Shown in pieces: positions 7,171-59,281 of a stretch of DNA of 64,000 nt. The stretch is from the NCBI GenBank assembly GCA_016711505.1, contig JADJSV010000018.1, positions 320,352-384,351 of the forward strand, in the 5' to 3' direction. How positions within the stretch are numbered: position 1 is the stretch's first letter; every line of letters starts with the position of its first letter. The notes under the pieces were generated by a model. The model saw only the letters and a list, made by a program, of their open reading frames with translations, was not told where the DNA came from and searched no databases. The translations under genes and the position numbers were made by a program. Origin of the DNA: Bacteroidota bacterium. GTDB taxonomy: Bacteria > Bacteroidota > Bacteroidia > AKYH767-A > 2013-40CM-41-45.

Positions 7171-7893
7171 ATGAACAGGCCCAATTCACAAATTTATTCT
7201 GATTATACCGACGAAGATTTCCGGGTATGGAAAATATTGTTTGACCGGCAAATGGATATTTTGTCACAAACAGTTTCCCGGAATTATCTCGACGCATTGA
7301 AAATTGTCAATTTCAGAAACGATAAGATCCCGGATTTTAACGAGGTCAATTCAACTTTGAACGATCTGACAGGTTGGAATCTGCATGTAGTTCCTAATAT
7401 CAGTCCGCAAAAAGAATTTTTCAAATACCTGTCTGAAAAAAAATTTACAGCTACCTGCTGGTTGCGATCATTTGAACAACTTGATTATATAGAAGAGCCG
7501 GATATGTTTCATGATGTATTTGCTCATGTTCCACTTTTAAGCAATACTGCATATTGCAATTTCTTCAAGGGTATCAGCGATATAGCCCTTGAACATATTG
7601 ATGATCCGAAAGCAATCGAACTGCTTGGAAGAATTTATTGGTTCACTATTGAATTCGGATTGATCAGAGAGAATGATAAATTAAAGATCTATGGCGCCGG
7701 AATAATTTCTTCTAATGGAGAAACTAAACATTGTCTGAGTAATGAATGTGAAAAATTGAACTTTGATGTAAATAAAATCATGTCAACCGATTTCAGAACC
7801 GATATTCTCCAGGATAAATATTTTGTTATTGATTCGTTTGATCAGCTCTATAATGCACTGCCCGAAATAAGGAAATTAGTAATTAATAATTAA
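7171..7893 (+). CDS. phhA: phenylalanine-4-hydroxylase (biopterin-dependent aromatic amino acid hydroxylase)
   Basis: Iron-binding FHDVFAHVPLL (His-x4-His) and downstream Glu (IYWFTIEFGL), typical of the bacterial PAH catalytic core. Confidence 0.7.
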   Translation: MNRPNSQIYSDYTDEDFRVWKILFDRQMDILSQTVSRNYLDALKIVNFRNDKIPDFNEVNSTLNDLTGWNLHVVPNISPQKEFFKYLSEKKFTATCWLRSFEQLDYIEEPDMFHDVFAHVPLLSNTAYCNFFKGISDIALEHIDDPKAIELLGRIYWFTIEFGLIRENDKLKIYGAGIISSNGETKHCLSNECEKLNFDVNKIMSTDFRTDILQDKYFVIDSFDQLYNALPEIRKLVINN

Positions 7894-12734: not shown

Positions 12735-15279
12735 ATGCGGACCAGTTTTATCCTCGCCTTAATTATTTTATTCAGGCTCCCTGCATTTTCGCAATACAGG
12801 GGAGGAGATTATAGTGGTTCTGCTGTTTCAATTAGTTCTTGCGTTTCAACTTACTCACCATTTTCAGGAGGATCAAATGACGGATCTTCATTGTCGCAAA
12901 CTGTTTCCTGTTCAAGTTCAGCAAATATTTATAAAGGTGGTTCATATGACGGCATAGGTGTCAGCATGACTTCATGTACAATGGTTGAAATCTACAAAGG
13001 TGGATCTTACCAGGGTTCTTCAATGAGCGCGATTGTTTGTGCAACTACAATTTACAGTGGCGGAGCTTTCAATGGCGGTGGATTTAATTCATGGAATAGT
13101 TGTCAGGGAAATATTTATAATGGCGGAAGAAATTCCGGATTTTCAGTTTACAAATTTGAATGTACTGTTGCAGCTTCCGTTTTTACCGGTGGTGCATACG
13201 ATGGTTTCAGCCTTAGTGCCGGTACATGTGTTACAACTTCGCCACCAATTTATACCGGTGGTCCATACGATGGTTTTTCTACCAGTAAAACATCTTGTAT
13301 AGTTTCGGCTTCTATTTTAAAGGCGGATCTTATAGTGGCTATGCAGTAGATACAGCTTCTAATTGTTTCTTTTCTTCACTCAGTATATTTTTTGGTGGCC
13401 CATATGATGGTTCTTCTGTCGATAAATTTGCACCATGTCCGACTTCATTTTCAATTTACTCAGGCGGATCTTATGATGGATTTCATCTTAATAGCATCTC
13501 TTGCCCGCCACCAATCACTGCAATTTATCAAGGCGGTTCATATGATGGATTCAGTTTGAATTCAGCAAGCTGTGCTGTTGCTGCCAGCATTTATAAGGGT
13601 GGCCCCTATGATGGATTCTCATCTTCAGGATTCTCATGTGTGTATTCAAATCTGATATACAGAGGTGGACCTTACGATGGAACTTCAGAAGATGGTGTCG
13701 CTTGTCCGGTTGCTGCCAGTATTTTTATTGGTGGATCTTATGATGGGTATGCAAGTAATCCTTTTGTTGCTTGTCCAAGCCCGATCAATATTTATAACGG
13801 CGGACCTTATGATGGTTTCAGTTCAAGTAGCACAACATGTATTTCAGTCTCTGTGTTTACCGGTGGCTCGTATAGTGGGTTTTCTGTAAATACGGTTTCA
13901 TCATGTACATTTGCTGCCAGTATTTATTCAGGTGGGCCTTACGATGGAAATAGTCAGGATTTCACAACTTGTCAGTCTACAATTTATTCAGGAGGTTCAT
14001 TCAGCGGTTATTCAATGGACAGTTACATCGCATGTCTGGCGGATATCTACAAAGGTGGTTCTTATGATGGCCATTCTATTAATTCAACTTTATGTGCACC
14101 ACCAATTACAGCAATTTATCACGGTGGTTCGTATGATGGTTTAGCAGTTGGAAAAATTTCTTGCTCTGTTGCTGCTACTATATTCTCCGGTGGACCTTAT
14201 GATGGACACTCAGTTATTGGAACTTCTTGTCCATTACCAATTACAGCTTTTTACAAAGGCGGTCCATACCAGGGAAGTTCTGTCAGCAGTCTCACTTGCG
14301 GACCGATGAGTATTATCTTCAAAGGCGGAGCATATGATGGTTCTTCCAATTCAGGAACTTCATGTGCTGTTGCTGCGACGATCTACAAAGGAGGTTCTTA
14401 TGATGGCTTTGCAAATAACGGTATTGCATGTTTACCGGTTGCACAAATTTTTACCGGAGGTTCTTATAATGGATTCTCAAATAGCAAAACCACTTGTCCA
14501 TCGACAGTTTCAATTTACTTCGGAGGATCATATGATGGCTTCTCTGCAAATATTGATGCTTGTCCTGCACCACCGGGATCAATTTTCAGTGGTGGACCAT
14601 TCGATGGACATTCAAAAGGTGTTAGAAACGAATGCGCAACATTATTTACATTCCTGAATGGAGGAATTCACGACGGTGGTGCACTTGCAAGTACAGGTTG
14701 TTTAATTCCGCTGCCGGTTGAATTACTTTATTTCAATGCACAACTCACAGATCAGGAAACAAATCCTAATGTGCTTTGTACATGGGCAACTGCAAGTGAA
14801 ACAAATAATGATTTCTTTACTGTAGAAAAAACGATCGACTTCTTTATATATGAAAAAGTTGGTATCGTTCCGGAAAAGGTAACTCAACACACTTCCAGTC
14901 TTATTCATTTGTTGATCCGAGACCATATCCGGGTACTTCATACTATCGTTTGAAACAAACTGACTTCAATGGCAATGAAGAATACTCAAGAACTGTTTCT
15001 ATAGATCTGAATAAACCTGATGAATTAACTTTGGAAGTTTATCCGAATCCGGTAGTCGGTCCGTTCATTAACGTTAGCATTTCCGGAAGTCGAAATCAGG
15101 AAGTCGAACTGAAGATCGTTGATATGCTTGGTAAAGAGCAATACTCTCAAAACATCACATTGAACGACAGAGTTGCTTCCGTTGCGATCAAGAATGATCA
15201 CTTCATTTCAGGAATCTATTATGTTATTGTAAATAGCGGAACGAAGGACAGGGTGTTTAAGAAAATTATGATTCAATAG
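12735..15279 (+). CDS. Cys-periodic 'GG-x-Y-D-G' tandem-repeat cell-surface protein with type-A T9SS C-terminal sorting domain; split into 3 ORFs by two 1-nt homopolymer frameshifts
   Basis: Signal peptide, then about 28 tandem 23-26-aa repeats (C-x5-7-[IV][YF]-x-GG-[SPA]-[YF]-[DNSQ]-G-x-S). They are followed by the conserved pre-CTD module (LPVELLYFNA...FTVEK..D...YYRLKQTDFNGNEEYS) and a Por-secretion tail (LEVYPNPVVG...GIYYVIV). Frameshifts at 13315-13321 (T4/A3 run) and 14874-14877 (A4 run) join ORFs 12735-13349, 13295-14953 and 14950-15279. Confidence 0.6.
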
Positions 15280-15296
15280 TATTCTGGAGTTATATT

Positions 15297-15391
15297 TTAA
15301 CACTAAGGTCACTAAAATTTGTCACAAGAACACTTATGAAAAAAGCATCACTTGTGCTCTTGTGCTAAAAATTTAGTGATCTTAGTGTTAA
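15297..15391. repeat. MITE-like palindromic element, copy A
   Basis: TTAACACTAAGGTCACTAAA ... TTTAGTGATCTTAGTGTTAA terminal inverted repeats (20 bp, 1 mismatch) enclosing a nested inverted repeat (CACAAGAACAC / GTGCTCTTGTG). A second copy lies at 37853-37958. Confidence 0.5.
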
Positions 15392-15402
15392 AATTAATAG
15401 GT

Positions 15403-16220
15403 ATGCTTAAACGGATAATACCATCCACAGGAGAATTACTACCTGCTATCGGTCTCGGCACGTGGCAAAGTTTTGATGTTGACGAAAGCAATCAATCAAA
15501 CTTAATTCCGGTTTTGGAGGAGCTGCACAACAGTGGCGGAAGATTGATCGATAGTTCACCAATGTATGGAAGATCTGAAACTGTTATTGGAAACCTCACA
15601 TCCAAATTAAAATCAAGAAATGATTTTTTCTACGCAACTAAAGTCTGGACAACCGGAAGACAAGCCGGTATCGATCAGATGAAATCATCTATGAAAAAAA
15701 TGCAGCGGGAGAAAATCGACTTGATGCAAATTCATAATCTGCTCGACTGGAAAACGCATTTGCCCGTTTTAAGAGAATGGAAAGAAGAAGGAATTATAAA
15801 ATACATTGGCATCACGCATTACCAGGATTCAATGCATGATGAACTTGCCAAAATAATTTCTTCAGAAAAAATTGATTTCGTTCAGTTTAATTACTCAATC
15901 GATTCATTGCATGCGGAAAAAGATTAATGAAAGTTGCCGGAGACAATGGTGTTGCAATTTTGATCAACAGACCATTTGGTGAAGGGAGATTGTTTGAAAA
16001 AGTAAAAGGAAAAAAATTACCGGAATGGTGTATTGAAGTCGGAATAAAAAACTGGAGTGAGTACTTTCTGAAATTTATTCTTGCTGATCCTAATGTTACA
16101 TGCGTTATTCCTGCAACTTCTGATGTTCAACATGCAGTAGAAAACTATCGTGCCGGTTCAGTTTCTATTCCGGATTTCGATTTGAGTCGGAAAATGGTCA
16201 ACTTTTTGAATTATATCTGA
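15403..16220 (+). CDS. aldo/keto reductase (one 1-nt frameshift in an A5 run at 15917-15921)
   Basis: AKR signatures (GLGTW, SPMYG, IGITHY); ORFs 15352-15927 and 15927-16220 rejoin as ...HAEKRLMKVAGDNGVA after adding one A. ATG at 15403; the upstream ORF extension overlaps the MITE-like element. Confidence 0.7.
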
Positions 16221-21085: not shown

Positions 21086-21460
21086 TCTGCTTGATTGGAA
21101 AACACATTTACCTGTTTTAAGAGAATGGAAAGAAGAAGGAATTAAAAATTATATTGGCATCACACACTATCAGGATTCAATGCATGATGAGCTTACAAAA
21201 ATAATTTTTTCCGAAAAAATTGATTTTTCCAATTTAATTATTCAATCGATTTACTGTACTAAGAGAAAAAATTATTAAAAGTAGCCGGAGACAATGGTGT
21301 TGCAACTTTGATCAACAGATCATTTGGTGGTGGCAGGTTGTTTGAAAAGTAAAAGGGAAAAATTACCGGAATGGTGTATTGAAGTCGGAATAAAAAACTG
21401 GAGTGAGTATTCCCGACTATAATTTAAGACGGAAAATGGTCAATCAACTTAATTTAATCT
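21086..21460 (+). pseudogene. decayed duplicate of the 3' end of the aldo/keto reductase gene at 15403-16220
   Basis: I estimate 85-90% nucleotide identity to 15740-16220, with a roughly 100-bp internal deletion and stop codons in frame. Confidence 0.6.
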
Positions 21461-24177: not shown

Positions 24178-25619
24178 ATGTCAGATACAAAGATCATAGA
24201 CGATATCACCCAAAGCGAATACAAGTATGGCTTTGTCAGTAATATCGAATCCGATAATGCACCGAAAGGATTGAACGAAGAGATCGTTCGGTTCATCTCT
24301 GCAAAAAAAAATGAACCTGAATGGTTACTCGAATGGCGATTGAAATCTTTTCGTCATTGGTTAACTATGACCGAACCGAAATGGCCGAATGTTCATTATC
24401 CGGAAATTAATTTTCAGGATATCATCTATTACTCTGCACCGAAACAAAAATTACACTGAACTCACTGGATGAAGTTGATCCGGAAATTCGTGCAACGTTT
24501 GATAAACTTGGCATCTCTCTCGAAGAACAAAAACGTTTAACAGGTGTTGCTGTTGATGCTGTCATCGATAGCGTTTCTGTAAAAACAACTTTTCGCGGAG
24601 CACTTGCTGAACTTGGAATAATCTTCTGTTCATTCAGTGAAGCAGTTCATGATCACCCGGAACTGATAAAAAAATATTTAGGCTCTGTCGTTCCGAGTAC
24701 CGATAATTTTTATGCAGCATTGAACTCCGCAGTTTTCAGCGATGGTTCTTTCTGTTATATTCCAAAAGGCGTTCGTTGCCCGATGGAATTATCGACGTAC
24801 TTCAGAATAAATTCTGCCGGCACCGGACAATTCGAACGTACACTCATCATCGCTGATGAAGGTGCATTCGTTAGTTATCTGGAAGGTTGCACTGCTCCAA
24901 TGCGTGATGAAAATCAATTGCATGCTGCAGTAGTAGAAATTTACGCTCACAAAGATGCACAGGTAAAATACAGTACAGTACAAAACTGGTATCCGGGCGA
25001 TAAAAATGGAAAAGGCGGAATCTATAATTTCGTAACCAAGCGCGGAATTTGTGCAGGTGATAATTCAAAGATCTCATGGACGCAAGTTGAAACAGGTTCA
25101 TCTATCACCTGGAAATATCCGAGTGTGATTTTGAAAGGTGATAATTCTGTTGGTGAATTCTATAGTGTAGCCGTAACGAATAATTATCAGCAGGCTGATA
25201 CCGGAACGAAAATGATTCACCTCGGAAAAAATACGAAGAGTACAATCGTATCAAAAGGTATTTCCGGTGGACATAGTCATAACAGTTACCGTGGACTCGT
25301 TCGCATTTCACCAAAAGCAGAAAATGCCCGCAACTATTCGCAATGTGATTCACTATTACTCGGCGACAAATGCGGCGCACATACATTCCCATATCTTGAA
25401 GTAAACAATAAATCAGCAACAGTAGAACACGAAGCTACAACATCAAAAGTCGGCGAAGACCAGATCTTTTATTGCAACCAACGCGGCATCTCTAACGAAG
25501 ATGCAGTAGGACTGATTGTTAACGGTTATTGCAAAGAAGTCTTTAACCAACTACCAATGGAATTCGCTGTGGAGGCGCAGAAGTTGCTGGCGGTTTCTTT
25601 AGAGGGAAGTGTGGGGTGA
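24178..25619 (+). CDS. sufB: Fe-S cluster assembly protein SufB (1-nt frameshift in an A5 run at 24446-24450)
   Basis: N-terminal fragment 24178-24459 and C-terminal fragment 24720-25619 are both SufB; the intervening frame reads ...[26 protein letters not shown]..., restored by adding one A. Confidence 0.85.
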
Positions 25620-29870: not shown

Positions 29871-29876
29871 GTCGAA

Positions 29877-29955
29877 GTTCAATGTTCAAAGTTCAAAGTT
29901 CAAAGTTGGCTTCGTAGGTGACTACGAAGCCAACTTTGAACTTTGAACATTGAAC
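29877..29955. repeat. long hairpin built from GTTCAAA heptamer repeats
   Basis: Left arm: GTTCAAT plus three GTTCAAA units plus GTTGGCTTCGTAG. Loop: GTGA. Right arm: CTACGAAGCCAAC, two TTTGAAC units, ATTGAAC. This gives a 34-bp perfect stem with one extra unpaired heptamer on the left. Confidence 0.6.
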
Positions 29956-29976
29956 AAAAAAAACATTCTAAAGAAA

Positions 29977-30492: not shown

Positions 30493-30601
30493 AGGTCAAA
30501 GGTTAAAGGTCAAAGGTCACGCGGACTGGCAAAACTCCTAGCTTAATTGGAAATTTCGACTTTTTCTGTGGTTTTTCTGCGTTTTCTGCGCAATTCTGCG
30601 G
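30493..30601. repeat. tandem heptamer (AAAGGTC/AAAGGTT x4) and nonamer (TTTTCTGCG x3-4) repeat tract
   Basis: AGGTCAAAGGTTAAAGGTCAAAGGTCAC at 30493-30520 and TTTTCTGTGGTTTTTCTGCGTTTTCTGCGCAATTCTGCGG at 30562-30601, in the intergenic region downstream of the DUF2480-like gene. Confidence 0.4.
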
Positions 30602-30686
30602 GAAATAAATTTTTGTCGCTATTATTTTGGAATATGCTGAAAATTGATTTGCTTTGTATCGCAAAGTACTTTTAAATCAATCAAAA

Positions 30687-34294: not shown

Positions 34295-35757
34295 TTATTC
34301 GATTACCAATTTTTTCACCACGGAATAATCTCCGGAAAAGATTTCAGCAGAATAAATTCCGCTTGCAAATGATGAAGTATTTACCTGAACGTTATCAGAA
34401 TTGAGATCAGCCTGGTAAATAATCTTACCAAGCATATCAGATACACGAACCTTCAAGTTGTTTCCTTTCAATCTGGAGACATCGATTGTTATATTGTTTT
34501 TTGCAGGATTAGGATAAATTGAAAAATCCAAAAATTTGTTTTCATCTATTCCTGTGAACAAATCATGTGAAGGCCATGAGGTAACTTGCGATAGGGCATT
34601 CCATACAAGATTATCTACATCAGTTGATAGTTGTGTACCATTTGCCGGACGAGTATTTAAAAGAATAGCCCAGTTTAATTGTAAATTTCCTGCCCGAACG
34701 AATTCTGTTGTTGTACCCGACAAAGATCCATTATGCCACCAGTTGTTAAAGGAGTTTACGGCAAATCCACATGCATAATTTGGATCGGTTGTCGATGGTT
34801 TGATCATCGTGTCAATTGTTGCTGTTGTAAGGATATCCGGCTTTGTTGTAAACCGATCGACAGAAACTAAAAATTTGCATAGATCTTCTGCAGACGAAAC
34901 CCAGCCACCATGAGCATCCATGTACTCAATATTGAAACCTGCGTAAGGCCATGGAACTTGCGTTGAATTATCATATACAGATGAAGCCAGGGGAGCAAAC
35001 GGATAGTCATAGTACGTTACTTCATTCGGTAAAATATCTGCTTCAAGATTTCTTCCAAGCTGAATTTCGGTAATACCCATTGGTACGAAAATAGTTCCAC
35101 GAAGATAATTTTCATAACTCTCACCGGTAATTTTTCTATTACTCTTCCTAAAATACAATATCCGAAGTTTGAATATTGTGCTTGAGTTCCGGGATCAAAA
35201 TCAAGCATTTTATTTGCAAGCATATAACGAATCATTGTAACTGCATCACCCGGTGGTGGTACACTCATAAAGGTTGCAATATTGTAAGCGTTGAACATCG
35301 GATCTCCGGAGATATTTCTATTCCATCCGCCTTCATGTTGCAATAATTGTCTGACAGTAATATCTGTTACTCTGCTATCAAGAATATTCTGGTAAATGGA
35401 ATCATTCAAAATTCCGGTTGGTCCGAAAACTTTTGCATCGAGTGTAAGTAAACCTTGTTCGAAAAGTTTCATAACTGCAACTGATGTTATCGGTTTTGAT
35501 AAACTCGCAATTCGGAATACACTATTTGGTTGAACAAGTGAAGATGTAGATGTATTTGCATAGCCAAATCCCCGATTGTAAACAAGCCTTCCATGATAAG
35601 TTAAAGCCAATTGGCCACCCGGCACACTATGGTTTGCGAGTAAGGTAGTCATTGCTGCATCAAAGGCAGCTAATTCAGGTACGTATAATCCTGTTTGTGC
35701 TTTTGTTTGTATTATACTACTGACGAGAATGAGAATAGAAGTAAAGATTTTTTTCAT
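34295..35757 (-). CDS. beta-lactamase-family serine hydrolase with T9SS C-terminal sorting domain (1-nt frameshift in an A-run near 35110)
   Basis: Signal peptide MKKIFTSILILVSSIIQTKAQ; SxxK active-site motif RIASLSKPIT; YSNFGY motif; the C-terminal fragment carries the Por-secretion tail (SIYPNPAKNNITI...GIYSAEI). The supplied upstream ORF extension begins at a TTG. Confidence 0.6.
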
Positions 35758-35905
35758 AGTGATGAGGTTAAGTGATGTTTTCGGATATATTGAATTCAAA
35801 CTTTCGGGAATTTGAATTTATTTAATTCAAACAGGTAGTAAAACAAATTACTTCAATATTATCAGTTATAAAAATACTTAAAATTGATTACGATGACAAA
35901 AATTA

Positions 35906-36251: not shown

Positions 36252-37763
36252 TTATTTTATTTGTAACGGTAAAATTAGTTTATCAAAATCGGTTTTAAAT
36301 TTACTGTCGAGAACAGGAGTTACCTTATCACTGAAGGAAAAATGAACGCCTTCAATGATTTTCTCTCTATGTTCAATTGGACAGTTTTCTACTATAGAAA
36401 TTAACTTTAGAAGATCTTTCTGTTCTTTTTTATTCTCAAGAATTGTTGCTGATAAGCCCCAGCCTAATCCAATAGTAAATTCATCACGAAATTCAGCTTT
36501 TGAAATATCTCTTATCTTAAATAATTTTTCTGTATCATGTCCGAATTTTCTTGCCGTAACCCATCCGGCTGCTTTGTAAAGCGGATATTCTGTTTTTTTT
36601 GTTGAATAAATGTATTCGGTGGATGCAATTACACAAAGTAATATCCAGCTGACGAGTAAGAAGTATTTACTTTTTGCCGAATGATAAAAACCAGCCATCA
36701 TTATCAGGACTAGAACTGGAATGATGTAACATAAGTGCCGGTAGAATACATAGCCTTTGTGTTCAAAGTACCATGTAAAGAATGGACTAAAAGAATATAG
36801 AATGAAAAAAATTATCACAAGAGAAATAGAAAGTGATTTAATCTGTAGCGAAATTGTCTTTGACCGAATGAAGAAAATAATTCCGGTCAAAATGAATGCT
36901 GCAATTATATATTTCAGTATTGAACTTAATAGAGCGGGAGAGTTTAGCAAAAACGATCCGGGAAGAGTTTTATACCAGACTTCCATAAAATTTGTTAAAC
37001 TCGTTGTTGTCAAAAAATTATTTAAAGGAACTCCACGAATTGATGCAACAGGATTTTTTTCCAGACCAAATCCGGTGTCGATAAAAATTCTTGTATATAA
37101 GTGCGGCATTAAAATTATAAAGCAAGTAAGACTAAATTTTAATAACGATTTTACCCGCATTCCGGTGAAATTTTCTGAAAGCAATATGTACAGGATAGAA
37201 AGTATGACCAACGATATGTTGTCGTAAGAATAGGAGATAGCAATTCCTGACAACAATCCCAGAAATATTATCAGATTTTTTGATTGCTTGTATGTTACTG
37301 CTATGTATAAAAAAAGAAATGGAAAAAATGATGATAGGGCATGCATTCCAAAATTTACAATGGTCCAAGGAATAAGAAGAGGAATAGAAAAAATTGTCCA
37401 TACACCAAACCATAATGCAACTTGTTTCCCAAAGACTTGTTCTGCTACTCTTATCTGAATCAATCGGGAGAAAAAATCAATTGCTAAAGCAACCCAGGAT
37501 AAAGTTGGTAATATATTTTCAAAAGGCCGGAATAGAATGGAAATAAAACCGAAAAGAAAACTCCCGCCTTCGTGTGGATAATGAATGAACTGTAAATATG
37601 AGAATGAAAGACTGTTGAACATTTCATCAATGCTCAATCCCCATGCTAATTGATCAGGAGAAGATAACCAGGCTTTTGTCGAATATCCATAAATAAACCG
37701 CACAATTGTTCCTGCAATGAGAATTAAAGTCAGATGGCGGTTATTTATTTTTTCATTTGTCAT
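36252..37763 (-). CDS. hypothetical polytopic membrane protein (GT-C / GT39-like topology)
   Basis: 503 aa, more than 10 TM segments, N-terminal ...IVRFIYGY... loop reminiscent of GT-C glycosyltransferases; weak assignment. Confidence 0.4.
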   Translation of the reverse strand: MTNEKINNRHLTLILIAGTIVRFIYGYSTKAWLSSPDQLAWGLSIDEMFNSLSFSYLQFIHYPHEGGSFLFGFISILFRPFENILPTLSWVALAIDFFSRLIQIRVAEQVFGKQVALWFGVWTIFSIPLLIPWTIVNFGMHALSSFFPFLFLYIAVTYKQSKNLIIFLGLLSGIAISYSYDNISLVILSILYILLSENFTGMRVKSLLKFSLTCFIILMPHLYTRIFIDTGFGLEKNPVASIRGVPLNNFLTTTSLTNFMEVWYKTLPGSFLLNSPALLSSILKYIIAAFILTGIIFFIRSKTISLQIKSLSISLVIIFFILYSFSPFFTWYFEHKGYVFYRHLCYIIPVLVLIMMAGFYHSAKSKYFLLVSWILLCVIASTEYIYSTKKTEYPLYKAAGWVTARKFGHDTEKLFKIRDISKAEFRDEFTIGLGWGLSATILENKKEQKDLLKLISIVENCPIEHREKIIEGVHFSFSDKVTPVLDSKFKTDFDKLILPLQIK

Positions 37764-37852
37764 TAGGGGATGTTTCGGTGGCTAATATATTGAAATTCTT
37801 TATAAGATTTAGCCAATGGAATATGTAATGAATTTAATCTGGTAAAAAATAA

Positions 37853-37958
37853 AACACTAAGATCACTAAGTTTTTAGCACAAGAACACAAGTGATGCTCT
37901 TTTCATAGTACCTTTATAGCTGATTTAGTTGAACTCGAAAGTTAGTGATCTTAGTGTT
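37853..37958. repeat. MITE-like palindromic element, copy B (inverted relative to copy A)
   Basis: AACACTAAGATCACTAA ... TTAGTGATCTTAGTGTT terminal inverted repeats. The inner ~38 bp (TTTTTAGCACAAGAACACAAGTGATGCTCTTTTCATAG) match the reverse complement of copy A's core. Confidence 0.5.
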
Positions 37959-37990: not shown

Positions 37991-38581
37991 TTAGAATAAG
38001 ACCTGATACCCAAAATGAATTGCAACGATATATGAAAATTTATCAATACTGAATTCATTTTCGGCTATGTAATTTTGTCCTGAAGTAATAATTTCTTTTC
38101 CAACATTTACCCATGGATTCAAATAGAAACCTGAATTCCGAAATGGTTTATAAACGTAGCCAACCCTTAGATTTGGATAGATACTTTTAAAATTCATGGC
38201 TTCTTTTCTTGCATTTATTCCGATCGTTTTTGAATAATAAAAAACGGACGGACCCAAATGAAAACCGGATCTGTTGTCTGATAAAAAGTAATCAGCAAAC
38301 AAAGCATAACTGGTATTGATCTTCACATCACGGAAACCTTTTTCGAAATTTGATTTCTTCATCATTTTATCCGGAAAATCGGAACGATAAACGGAACCTG
38401 TGATTGTGAAGTGATTTAATGTGGAAGGACTATATTTCATACTAAAAGAGTATCCGCCCAGGATAAACGGTGCCGGATCCAATTCGATGGAAAGATAATT
38501 CTTCGATGTTGACAAGGTGTCTTCCTTGGCACTTGCTGCAAGTCCAAGCAGAAGAAAGGCGATGATTTTGATATTTTTCAT
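37991..38581 (-). CDS. hypothetical outer-membrane beta-barrel protein
   Basis: Signal peptide MKNIKIIAFLLLGLAASA, alternating amphipathic strands, C-terminal ...GYQVLF; the supplied ORF starts at an upstream TTG. Confidence 0.4.
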   Translation of the reverse strand: MKNIKIIAFLLLGLAASAKEDTLSTSKNYLSIELDPAPFILGGYSFSMKYSPSTLNHFTITGSVYRSDFPDKMMKKSNFEKGFRDVKINTSYALFADYFLSDNRSGFHLGPSVFYYSKTIGINARKEAMNFKSIYPNLRVGYVYKPFRNSGFYLNPWVNVGKEIITSGQNYIAENEFSIDKFSYIVAIHFGYQVLF

Positions 38582-38658
38582 TTGTTTTTGAGTTATTAAT
38601 TGTCCGGCAAATAACCGGTCATTAAGTTTAATACCCATTAACAAATGATAAAAAGTGA

Positions 38659-58059: not shown

Positions 58060-59281
58060 TTAACTTTTTGCCACTCTTTCAATTGTAAGCCCCTGGATTA
58101 TTATACTGAACAGAACACAAAAGTAGGTTGCAATCAAAAGCAGGTTTTTTGTTTCACTGGTCGGAAGCGACAATGCCAAAGCAAGTGAAAGCCCGCCACG
58201 CAGGCCGCCCCAACCTATAATTCTTGCCTCTTTGCTGGTTAATTTCAAGAGTTTTGGAAAGACTAAATGCGGCAGATATACAACAACCAATCTGGATACT
58301 AAAACCAGAATCACAGAAAGAATTCCTATTGCCAGATATGTGAAGTTAAAATCAATAACAATAATTACGAAGGCAATTATTATAAACAGAATTGCATTCA
58401 GGATGACATCCAGCAATTCCCAGAATTTATTTATGTACTCCTGTGTAATATCGCTCATTGAAATATTGACTTTGTAATTGCCAACCATAAGTCCCATTAC
58501 TACCATTGACAAAGCACCTGAAAGATGAAGATAGTTACAGAAAGAGTAACCGGCCATCACAAAGGCGATTGTGAGAAGGATCTCCGTCTCATAATGATCA
58601 ACAGATTTCATAAGTAAATACAATAAATATCCTAGTCCAAAACCCATCAGAATTCCTCCCACAGCCTCTTTCACAAATAAAATTCCAAAATGAGCAAAGC
58701 TGAAAGTGCCATTACTGAGAGAATCCAATAATGAAATATATACTACTACGCCAACACCATCGTTAAATAAACTTTCACCAACAATTGTATATTCTGTTTT
58801 TTTTCGGAACCTTTGCTTTTTTTAATATTCCCAATACAGCAATCGGATCGGTAGGCGAGATTAGTGAACCGAAAATCAGGCAATAGATAAAATTTATGTG
58901 CAGATTAAAGGCCAGACTTAATCCATAAAACAGAATGGCAACGATGATAGTTGATAGCAGAACTCCACCCAAAGCGAATATTGCAATTGGTTTGATCTGT
59001 TCCTTGAGATTGCTCCAGTTGGTATGAAGTGATCCGGCAAAAAGTAAAAAACCTAAAAGGACATTCAGAATGATCTGATCAATATTGGCAAATTCTATAT
59101 ACTTTTTGATTTCATCGATTGGAATATCCATCCATAATTTGGAACTGATCACCAGTAAGGATAATACAGTTGAGAGAAAAAATAAGCCTATTACAAATGG
59201 TAGTTTTAAGAATTTTTGATTTATATAGGAGAATCCTGCGGAAAGACAGATCAAGATGGTTAAGGCGAAATAGATATTCAT
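58060..59281 (-). CDS. Na+/H+ antiporter, CPA1 (NhaP-type), one homopolymer frameshift
   Basis: ORFs 58775-59281 and 58060-58728 rejoin as ...ILKKAKVPKKTEYTIVGESLFNDGVGVVVY... across an A8 run at about 58787-58794. Confidence 0.65.

Follow-up and report, generated by a model that had tools for sequence, protein, structure and literature searches.

Much work has been devoted to dispersed palindromic repeats in Proteobacteria, and very little to those in Bacteroidota. The REP/BIME/REPIN repeats of E. coli and Pseudomonas are extragenic palindromes that lie at gene 3' ends, between convergent or tandem genes, without target duplication; they occur as single units, as inverted doublets forming a long hairpin or as tandem mosaic arrays, and are vertically inherited and conserved over the long term. 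In Proteobacteria, these repeats are known as mRNA 3' stabilisers or partial terminators. MITEs of the Correia (Neisseria), ERIC/IRU and RUP types are non-autonomous, multi-copy intergenic elements of ~100 nt with terminal inverted repeats (TIRs), and can act as terminators or RNA-processing hairpins. The cyanobacterial STRR are intergenic tandem 7-nt units, sometimes inverted, that form hairpins.

The element analysed here is represented by two copies, A and B, in a 64-kb stretch of DNA (hereafter, the window). It shares with REP/BIME/REPIN repeats the placement, the absence of target duplication, all three arrangements and the vertical inheritance, and with the Correia, ERIC/IRU and RUP elements the size, the TIRs, the lack of autonomy and the multi-copy intergenic distribution. 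Unlike REP, it has no GT[AG]G foot, is AT-rich and measures 73-109 nt, compared to 20-40 nt per REP; its arms, typified by the motif CACTAAG, are built of tandem 8-9-nt units, the family numbers tens rather than hundreds of copies per genome, and no RAYT was found near any copy. Unlike the Correia, ERIC and RUP elements, it has no TA or other target duplication, no matching IS was found for it, and it is located almost exclusively 0-40 nt after stop codons and has inner palindromes that are swapped modularly. STRR belong to another phylum and consist of other units, and the CACTAAG element, rather than being a simple heptamer tract, has a defined composite structure in which linkers and loop are conserved. 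Within the same phylum, "atypical" hairpins have been described around the genes of Bacteroidetes TnpA-REP subclass 2.6 (Quentin et al., 2018; PMC6006769). Like the CACTAAG element, these are non-GTAG and have extra copies elsewhere in the genome, and one that is listed, a nested hairpin of 122 nt, has arms that also look tandemly repetitive; however, most of these hairpins are short and GC-rich, with GCTAG/GCTGG as the foot, and none has a CACTAAG arm. In the literature on Flavobacterium or Bacteroidetes repeats, we found no description of a CACTAAG-arm family.

Copies A and B are members of a dispersed family of composite palindromic intergenic repeats, probably REP/BIME or REPIN-like in behaviour, in an uncultured lineage of Bacteroidota that is found mainly in wastewater and activated sludge. 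The element is best filed as an incremental addition to the known REP/BIME/MITE class of bacterial intergenic repeats.

Copies A and B and their gene context

The 17-nt arm AACACTAAGRTCACTAA has four exact matches in the window (15299+, 15373-, 37853+ and 37942-), compared to 0.39 expected by chance, and four or more matches were obtained in 0 of 100 dinucleotide shuffles. The matches form two inverted arms in A and in B alike, in agreement with an initial reading of these letters alone (hereafter, the sequence-only reading), which had proposed two palindromic copies here, with terminal inverted repeats and a nested inner palindrome. In copy A, both layers are evident: outer arms of 27 nt that are 93% complementary (15294-15320 / 15368-15394) and inner arms (15318-15333 / 15354-15369) that contain CACAAGAACAC / GTGCTCTTGTG. 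The features of the two sites are listed below, with L numbers denoting the loci that were fetched for comparison (241 in all, ~1.9 Mb).

14950-15279, + strand: gene upstream of copy A, encoding a protein with a C-terminal Por_Secre_tail sorting domain (Pfam); stop codon 19 nt before the element
15294-15394: extended limits of the copy A palindrome
15299-15389, + strand: copy A, full element, 91 nt (arm matches, folding, match in L085, orthologous copies in L201, L244 and L248-250)
15299-15316: left outer arm of copy A
15317-15322: left linker of copy A
15323-15333: left inner arm of copy A, CACAAGAACAC
15334-15353: loop of copy A
15354-15364: right inner arm of copy A, GTGCTCTTGTG
15365-15371: right linker of copy A
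15372-15389: right outer arm of copy A
15403-16220, + strand: aldo/keto reductase (AKR) gene, starting 13 nt after copy A (Pfam Aldo_ket_red, homologues)
36252-37763, - strand: gene downstream of copy B, encoding a 503-aa membrane protein; start 89 nt after the element
37841-37852, - strand: T-rich tract TTATTTTTTACC directly after copy B, representing one of two 7-nt forms that recur at the ends of family members
37853-37958, - strand: copy B, a decayed member, 106 nt (arm matches, alignment to copy A; identical in L116)
37853-37870 and 37942-37958: outer arms of copy B
37878-37888: inner arm of copy B, CACAAGAACAC
37889-37907: loop of copy B, homologous to the reverse complement of copy A
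37908-37941: mutated inner arm of copy B plus 16-nt insertion
37991-38644, - strand: gene upstream of copy B, encoding a 217-aa protein without a Pfam family; stop codon 32 nt before the element

Copy A is predicted to fold into a near-perfect nested hairpin of 91 nt, with energies of -43.7 kcal/mol (+ strand) and -47.4 kcal/mol (- strand) (z = -10.6; equal stability in 0 of 200 shuffles). The fold of copy B is weaker, at -31 to -33 kcal/mol: the first ~68 nt are the reverse complement of copy A, and the right inner arm is mutated at ~8 positions and carries a 16-nt insertion, so that the inner stem is unpaired. Copy B exceeds copy A by 15 nt, about half of the ~30 extra internal bases that had been claimed. 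At both ends of copy A, TTAA is an extension of the palindrome (TTAACACT...AGTGTTAA) and is absent from most other copies. Across the window, Rfam gave no match at the gathering score, and assignment to a known RNA family was rejected given that permissive thresholds yielded just generic hairpin (miRNA-precursor) matches far below threshold. On the + strand, the loop and right inner arm of copy A (15337-15369) read as a 10-codon ORF from ATG to TAA, ATGAAAAAAGCATCACTTGTGCTCTTGTGCTAA, the product of which, MKKASLVLLC*, resembles a lipoprotein signal peptide; we judged it to be fortuitous, given that the loops vary and that the orientation of the element is reversed at one site.

The sequence-only reading considered copy B to be inverted relative to copy A. 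This holds for the + strand; relative to local transcription, the two copies have the same orientation because the flanking genes are on opposite strands too. Likewise, both copies are located downstream of a gene, as proposed, 19 and 32 nt after the stops, but copy A also ends 13 nt before the AKR start codon. The listed AKR start, TTG 15352, falls inside copy A, and the Pfam Aldo_ket_red match and the homologues favour ATG 15403, which bears out the suspicion that the ORF had been extended spuriously into the element. On the gene strand, copy B is followed by TTATTTTTT, and copy A by AAAATTAAT and then the AKR start codon, so the proposed terminator role fits copy B and not copy A. Comparably strong hairpins occur at just 3-4 of the 63 gene ends in the window, which indicates that CACTAAG-arm hairpins are not the general terminators of this genome.

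Several side observations pertain to these genes. Between copy B and the 503-aa gene, ~25 nt upstream of the latter, there is a conserved motif, TTCAATATATTAGCCA / AATTTCAATATATTAGCCAC (window 37780-37800 on the - strand; L117 3040-3062; L121 432-452), kept in three species that are otherwise ~70% identical; AATTTCAATATATTAGCCAC is probably a promoter or regulatory site of the membrane-protein gene. The AKR gene is split in the window by a frameshift near 15927 and is an intact 289-aa ORF in strain contig L201. Altogether, genes are split into two adjacent ORFs at 15927, 24178-25619, 34295-35799, 58060-59281 and 13295-15279 (those for AKR, SufB, a beta-lactamase-family T9SS protein, a Na+/H+ exchanger and a T9SS cargo protein); the intact AKR gene in the 98.6%-identical L201 suggests that the splits reflect long-read assembly indel errors more than real pseudogenes. 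A fragment of ~325 nt at 21086-21409 corresponds, with 82-87% identity, to the central part of the AKR gene, i.e., is a partial second AKR copy. When L244 is taken as the reference, ~7.4 kb of additional DNA with many Por_Secre_tail genes separates the suf operon from the AKR gene in the window.

The CACTAAG-arm family

The exact 17-mer was found in 115 stretches when a single genome of each species was scanned. Some 45 of these represent a conserved Campylobacter stretch (mutual identity ~91-97% over kilobases) and ~35 are isolated matches, with ~70 chance matches expected, by our estimate, in 1.2e12 positions. The remaining stretches are paired hairpins in the Bacteroidota MAGs JADJFC, JBMQEM, JAYUWA and JANOBV, and also in Saprospiraceae and Flavobacterium psychrophilum. 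The exact arm is present in 7-12 separate 8-kb blocks in each of JBMQEM, JAYUWA and JADJFC and in 3 blocks in JANOBV, and a metagenome scan for it gave at least 120 contigs, many from wastewater or sludge samples, so the family extends far beyond the two copies in the window. At no more than two arm mismatches there are at least 72 paired elements, and at no more than three, at least 82, with about 70 outside the window; the inner CACAAG module is found in at least 61 paired elements, at least 48 of them non-redundant. Thus, the view of the element as non-autonomous, multi-copy and dispersed, with inverted terminal arms and a nested palindrome, is borne out.

The consensus consists of AACACTAAGATCACTAA, a short A/T linker, CACAAGAACAC, a loop of 5-30 nt, GTGTTCTTGTG, CTAAAAAC and TTAGTGATCTTAGTGTT, in this order, and the elements range from 73 to 109 nt. 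The outer arm comprises two or more tandem units of ~9 nt, CACTAAGNN, which contain CACTAAG, and the inner arm comprises tandem CACAAG units; in some members, the inner module is swapped for CCACGAATTCACGAAT or CACAATAAGACCACTAAG. The linkers are asymmetric (AAATTTGT vs AGTTTTTAG), so that orientation can be assigned for about two dozen copies. Each end of the element is preceded by a heptamer, AAAATAA or AAATTTT, which at the right end appears as its reverse complement. These A/T heptamers behave as parts of the element, not as direct repeats, and often yield an A-tract/hairpin/T-tract layout.

Copies at non-homologous loci are 85-95% identical, loops and asymmetric linkers included. For example, an element in a different MAG (L085, 620-713) matches copy A, loop included, at 94.7% identity over 94 nt, and its flanks have no match in the window. 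Judging from these alignments, elements at unrelated loci appear to share a recent common ancestry, and given that whole elements are found at many unrelated loci, the family has spread by copying.

Outside Bacteroidota, the same CACTAAG arms are present in hairpins whose interiors are unrelated, namely, in a 982-kb Vicinamibacterales contig, between convergent genes in a locally 65% GC region, and in a Micavibrio contig, a contig binned as Gemmobacter and the Deltaproteobacteria TL4 contig (L114 617-710; L115 1968-2073; L037 4817-4967, with four tandem units per arm; L072 ~7430-7580). These arms may reflect horizontal spread or a shared recognition motif. Searches of plasmid and phage collections with blastn gave no match to the element, and phage or plasmid carriage was dismissed; the two matches in viral contigs are single arms without a hairpin partner. 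A role of CACTAAG as a DNA-uptake-sequence-like motif was rejected as well: outside the elements, it was observed 8 times vs 7.7 expected.

The placement of the elements is highly constrained. Among the copies checked first, 27 of 28 lie within ~40 nt of a stop codon, and in a later tally of ~48-50 copies, ~22 are flanked by convergent genes, ~25 by tandem genes and a single one by divergent genes, so that nearly all copies are found 0-40 nt after a stop codon in convergent or tandem intergenic regions. Relative to the upstream gene, 8 copies have the same and 3 the opposite orientation, which is not significant, and a link between orientation and transcription was accordingly discarded. A clear T-tract is present at only about half of the family copies. 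The ends of integron attC sites conform to the consensus RYYYAAC/GTTRRRY; the ends of the CACTAAG elements do not, and the copies are dispersed, in both orientations, among housekeeping genes, so this identity was rejected too.

Orthologous sites

Once in place, the elements are inherited vertically. In strain contigs 98-99% identical to the window, copy B (L116, 98.6%) and copy A (L201, 98.6%) are unchanged. In L244, an element 96.1% identical to copy A is located between the same flanks, in inverted orientation, in surroundings of 79.6% nucleotide identity over 3.3 kb (AKR 86% identical). In L248-250, the element has the window orientation and is ~96% identical to copy A (AKR 89% identical), with an insertion of an 18-nt palindrome, TCCCGATAGCTATCGGGA, into its right inner arm. 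At more distant AKR loci, the element is absent and the neighbouring genes differ. Site B of the sister species (L117) is occupied, in the same place after the orthologous gene, by a different subfamily, and the orthologous loci of two MAGs (L089 and L113) both contain an element. The conservation of the element close to the family consensus could be due to sequence constraint or to gene conversion among copies.

Other comparisons reveal remodelling. L146 and L197 have coding flanks that are 100% identical, and contain different family members in opposite orientation; different members also occupy one site in L196 and L225. Identical flanks enclose 2 tandem 79-nt units in L122 and 6 in L016; the latter array was considered as a potential CRISPR and rejected, as it repeats the whole 79-nt unit, without unique spacers. 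L053 and L085 share flanks, and L053 has an unrelated hairpin with CTGTCT/AGACAG tandem arms. Thus, in-place inversion, member replacement, nested insertion and tandem array expansion are all seen, and no empty site was found among the orthologous pairs that could be compared.

The palindrome TCCCGATAGCTATCGGGA is nested also in a family member at an unrelated locus (L078). As a hairpin tip or nested insert, this perfect 18-nt palindrome was observed at L248 1523-1540, L078 6401-6418, L005 3858 and 5088, L076 3129, L085 3622 and L063 1336, and it might represent a very small module in its own right, mobile or recombinogenic.

Possible mobilisation and role

Pfam searches with all 63 ORFs of the window detected no transposase, integrase or Y1/HUH protein, in agreement with the sequence-only reading, which had noted no transposase gene here. 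A regular expression for the HUH...Y motif had no match in the window or in the 241 loci (~1.9 Mb), which include every exact-arm block of the four MAGs, and no transposase was seen next to copies in these loci. Terminal inverted arms of 17-27 nt are present in both copies and in about 70 relatives; across these copies, there is no consistent target-site duplication, and TTAA is not a general feature. The only three pairs of arms 400-5000 bp apart were considered as potential boundaries of a parent IS: the pair examined (L078) turned out to be two separate hairpins flanking an ExbD-like gene, with no transposase, and the other two pairs belong to one Shewanella contig and one Granulicatella contig. 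The arms begin with AACACTAAG and no GTAG or GTGG adjoins the hairpin, i.e., there is no GT[AG]G foot. In an alignment of 33 members, pairing was 89.8%, equal to the shuffled control, with the variable positions mostly unpaired and with the exact-arm search biasing the outer stem, which makes this test weak there; the sense strand had no folding advantage (10 of 22, p = 0.8), and strand-specific selection on the RNA was rejected. Given the lack of covariation and of a sense-strand advantage, there is no direct evidence of selection on the hairpin itself rather than on the arm sequences.

These findings bear on how the elements might move. The sequence-only reading called them MITE-like, implying a deletion derivative of an IS that is moved in trans by a DDE transposase binding the 17-nt TIRs and that duplicates a TA or TTAA target. 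The conserved inverted terminal arms, the size of 73-109 nt and the many dispersed copies are compatible with this label, and the tandem sub-terminal CACTAAG units could represent multiple transposase-binding sites. However, the proposed duplication was not borne out upon comparison, with TTAA present only where the palindrome extends and no consistent direct repeat among about 70 copies; a TIR-matched parent IS was found neither in the window nor in the fetched loci nor in the plasmid or phage collections, and the one arm pair examined of three encloses no transposase; the window itself encodes no transposase domain; and the orthologous pairs that could be compared include no empty site. The strict placement 3' of genes and the tandem arrays are also atypical of cut-and-paste MITEs. 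Because neither a target duplication nor, in the material searched, a parent IS was found, we consider a classical MITE quite improbable, although the multi-copy, TIR-bearing and non-autonomous nature of the element that the label conveyed stands. The absence of target duplication, together with the dependence on hairpin arms, argues more for recombination or for an enzyme that recognises single-strand hairpins (HUH/RAYT-like) than for a DDE transposase of the cut-and-paste kind. A specific version of this scenario is a REPIN-type element mobilised by a single-copy RAYT (Y1/HUH) encoded elsewhere in the genome, probably of Bacteroidetes subclass 2.6 or 2.4. A hairpin of two inverted repeats without target duplication, the extragenic placement at gene 3' ends, BIME-like arrays such as the 79-nt units of L016 and L122, and the long persistence with high conservation at orthologous sites would all be expected for such an element; moreover, a nested 122-nt hairpin in Belliella baltica and CACAGAACAC in Cytophaga hutchinsonii repeats are on record (Quentin et al., 2018; PMC6006769). 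Nevertheless, the GT[AG]G foot is absent, CACTAAG occurs in none of the listed subclass 2.6 repeats, and the HUH...Y motif is missing from the window and from the ~1.9 Mb of family-bearing loci, so that we regard this version as unlikely.

At the other extreme, the hairpins might not be mobile at all: they could have originated where they now are, as ordinary terminators or regulatory hairpins, and have become alike through convergent selection or slippage of short tandem units. Orthologous gene ends with unrelated hairpins of the same style (CTGTCT/AGACAG in L053, a family element in L085), as well as the other tandem-heptamer tracts and a hairpin with GTTCAAA arms in the window, point in this direction. 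Such an origin is very hard to reconcile with 85-95% identity at non-homologous loci that includes loops and asymmetric linkers, and with a nested insertion common to copies at different loci, and we give it hardly any credence. Finally, the CACTAAG hairpins might have been left by a mobilisation or recognition system not described so far, distinct from both DDE transposases and GTAG-type RAYTs, that recognises tandem CACTAAG on a hairpin, places elements behind stop codons and works across phyla, as the hairpins in Vicinamibacterales, Micavibrio and other non-Bacteroidota contigs would suggest. This is a doubtful proposition; if it were true, the CACTAAG elements would in effect serve as terminator modules that are portable and stay close to a conserved master sequence.

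Under the preferred interpretation, that of a REP/BIME or REPIN-like dispersed repeat family, the element has been copied to many loci, is lodged behind stop codons and persists by descent, with recombination between its own inverted arms and with other copies remodelling it. On transcription, the 3' end of the upstream mRNA would acquire a long hairpin, as the position of the element suggests. The layout of copy B looks like an intrinsic terminator, and the hairpin with the T-tract that follows could terminate transcription. Copy A could terminate transcription efficiently only if the AKR gene were silent; read-through appears more likely because L201, L244 and L248 all have an intact AKR gene that is preceded by the element at a distance of 13 nt, in one orientation or the other. 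The intercistronic hairpin of copy A would then protect or attenuate the transcript.

The family provides a defined, alignable example of such repeats in Bacteroidota, with a modular structure, strict post-stop placement, 96% conservation amid neighbours conserved at 80%, and visible remodelling. Possible uses include strain typing and assembly of wastewater Bacteroidota, and also better gene-start calling, given that ORF callers run into the element, as in the case of the AKR gene.

The window contains additional repeats of this kind. A third long hairpin (29872-29956) has 35-nt arms that are 97% complementary, a 4-nt loop and a predicted stability of ~-57 kcal/mol; it starts at the stop of the last gene of the suf operon (FeS_assembly_P) and precedes a DUF2480 gene. 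Its arms consist of heptamers, GTTCAAA / TTTGAAC, repeated four times in tandem, and its tip is GGCTTCGTAG/CTACGAAGCC, i.e., this hairpin is of the same style as copies A and B and belongs to a different family. Tandem heptamers without an inverted partner are found directly after a stop codon at 30493-30522 (GGTCAAA/GGTTAAA, four units) and 30560-30606 (TTCTGCG, four units). The TTCTGCG tract is matched at four places in L076 and is, therefore, another dispersed repeat.
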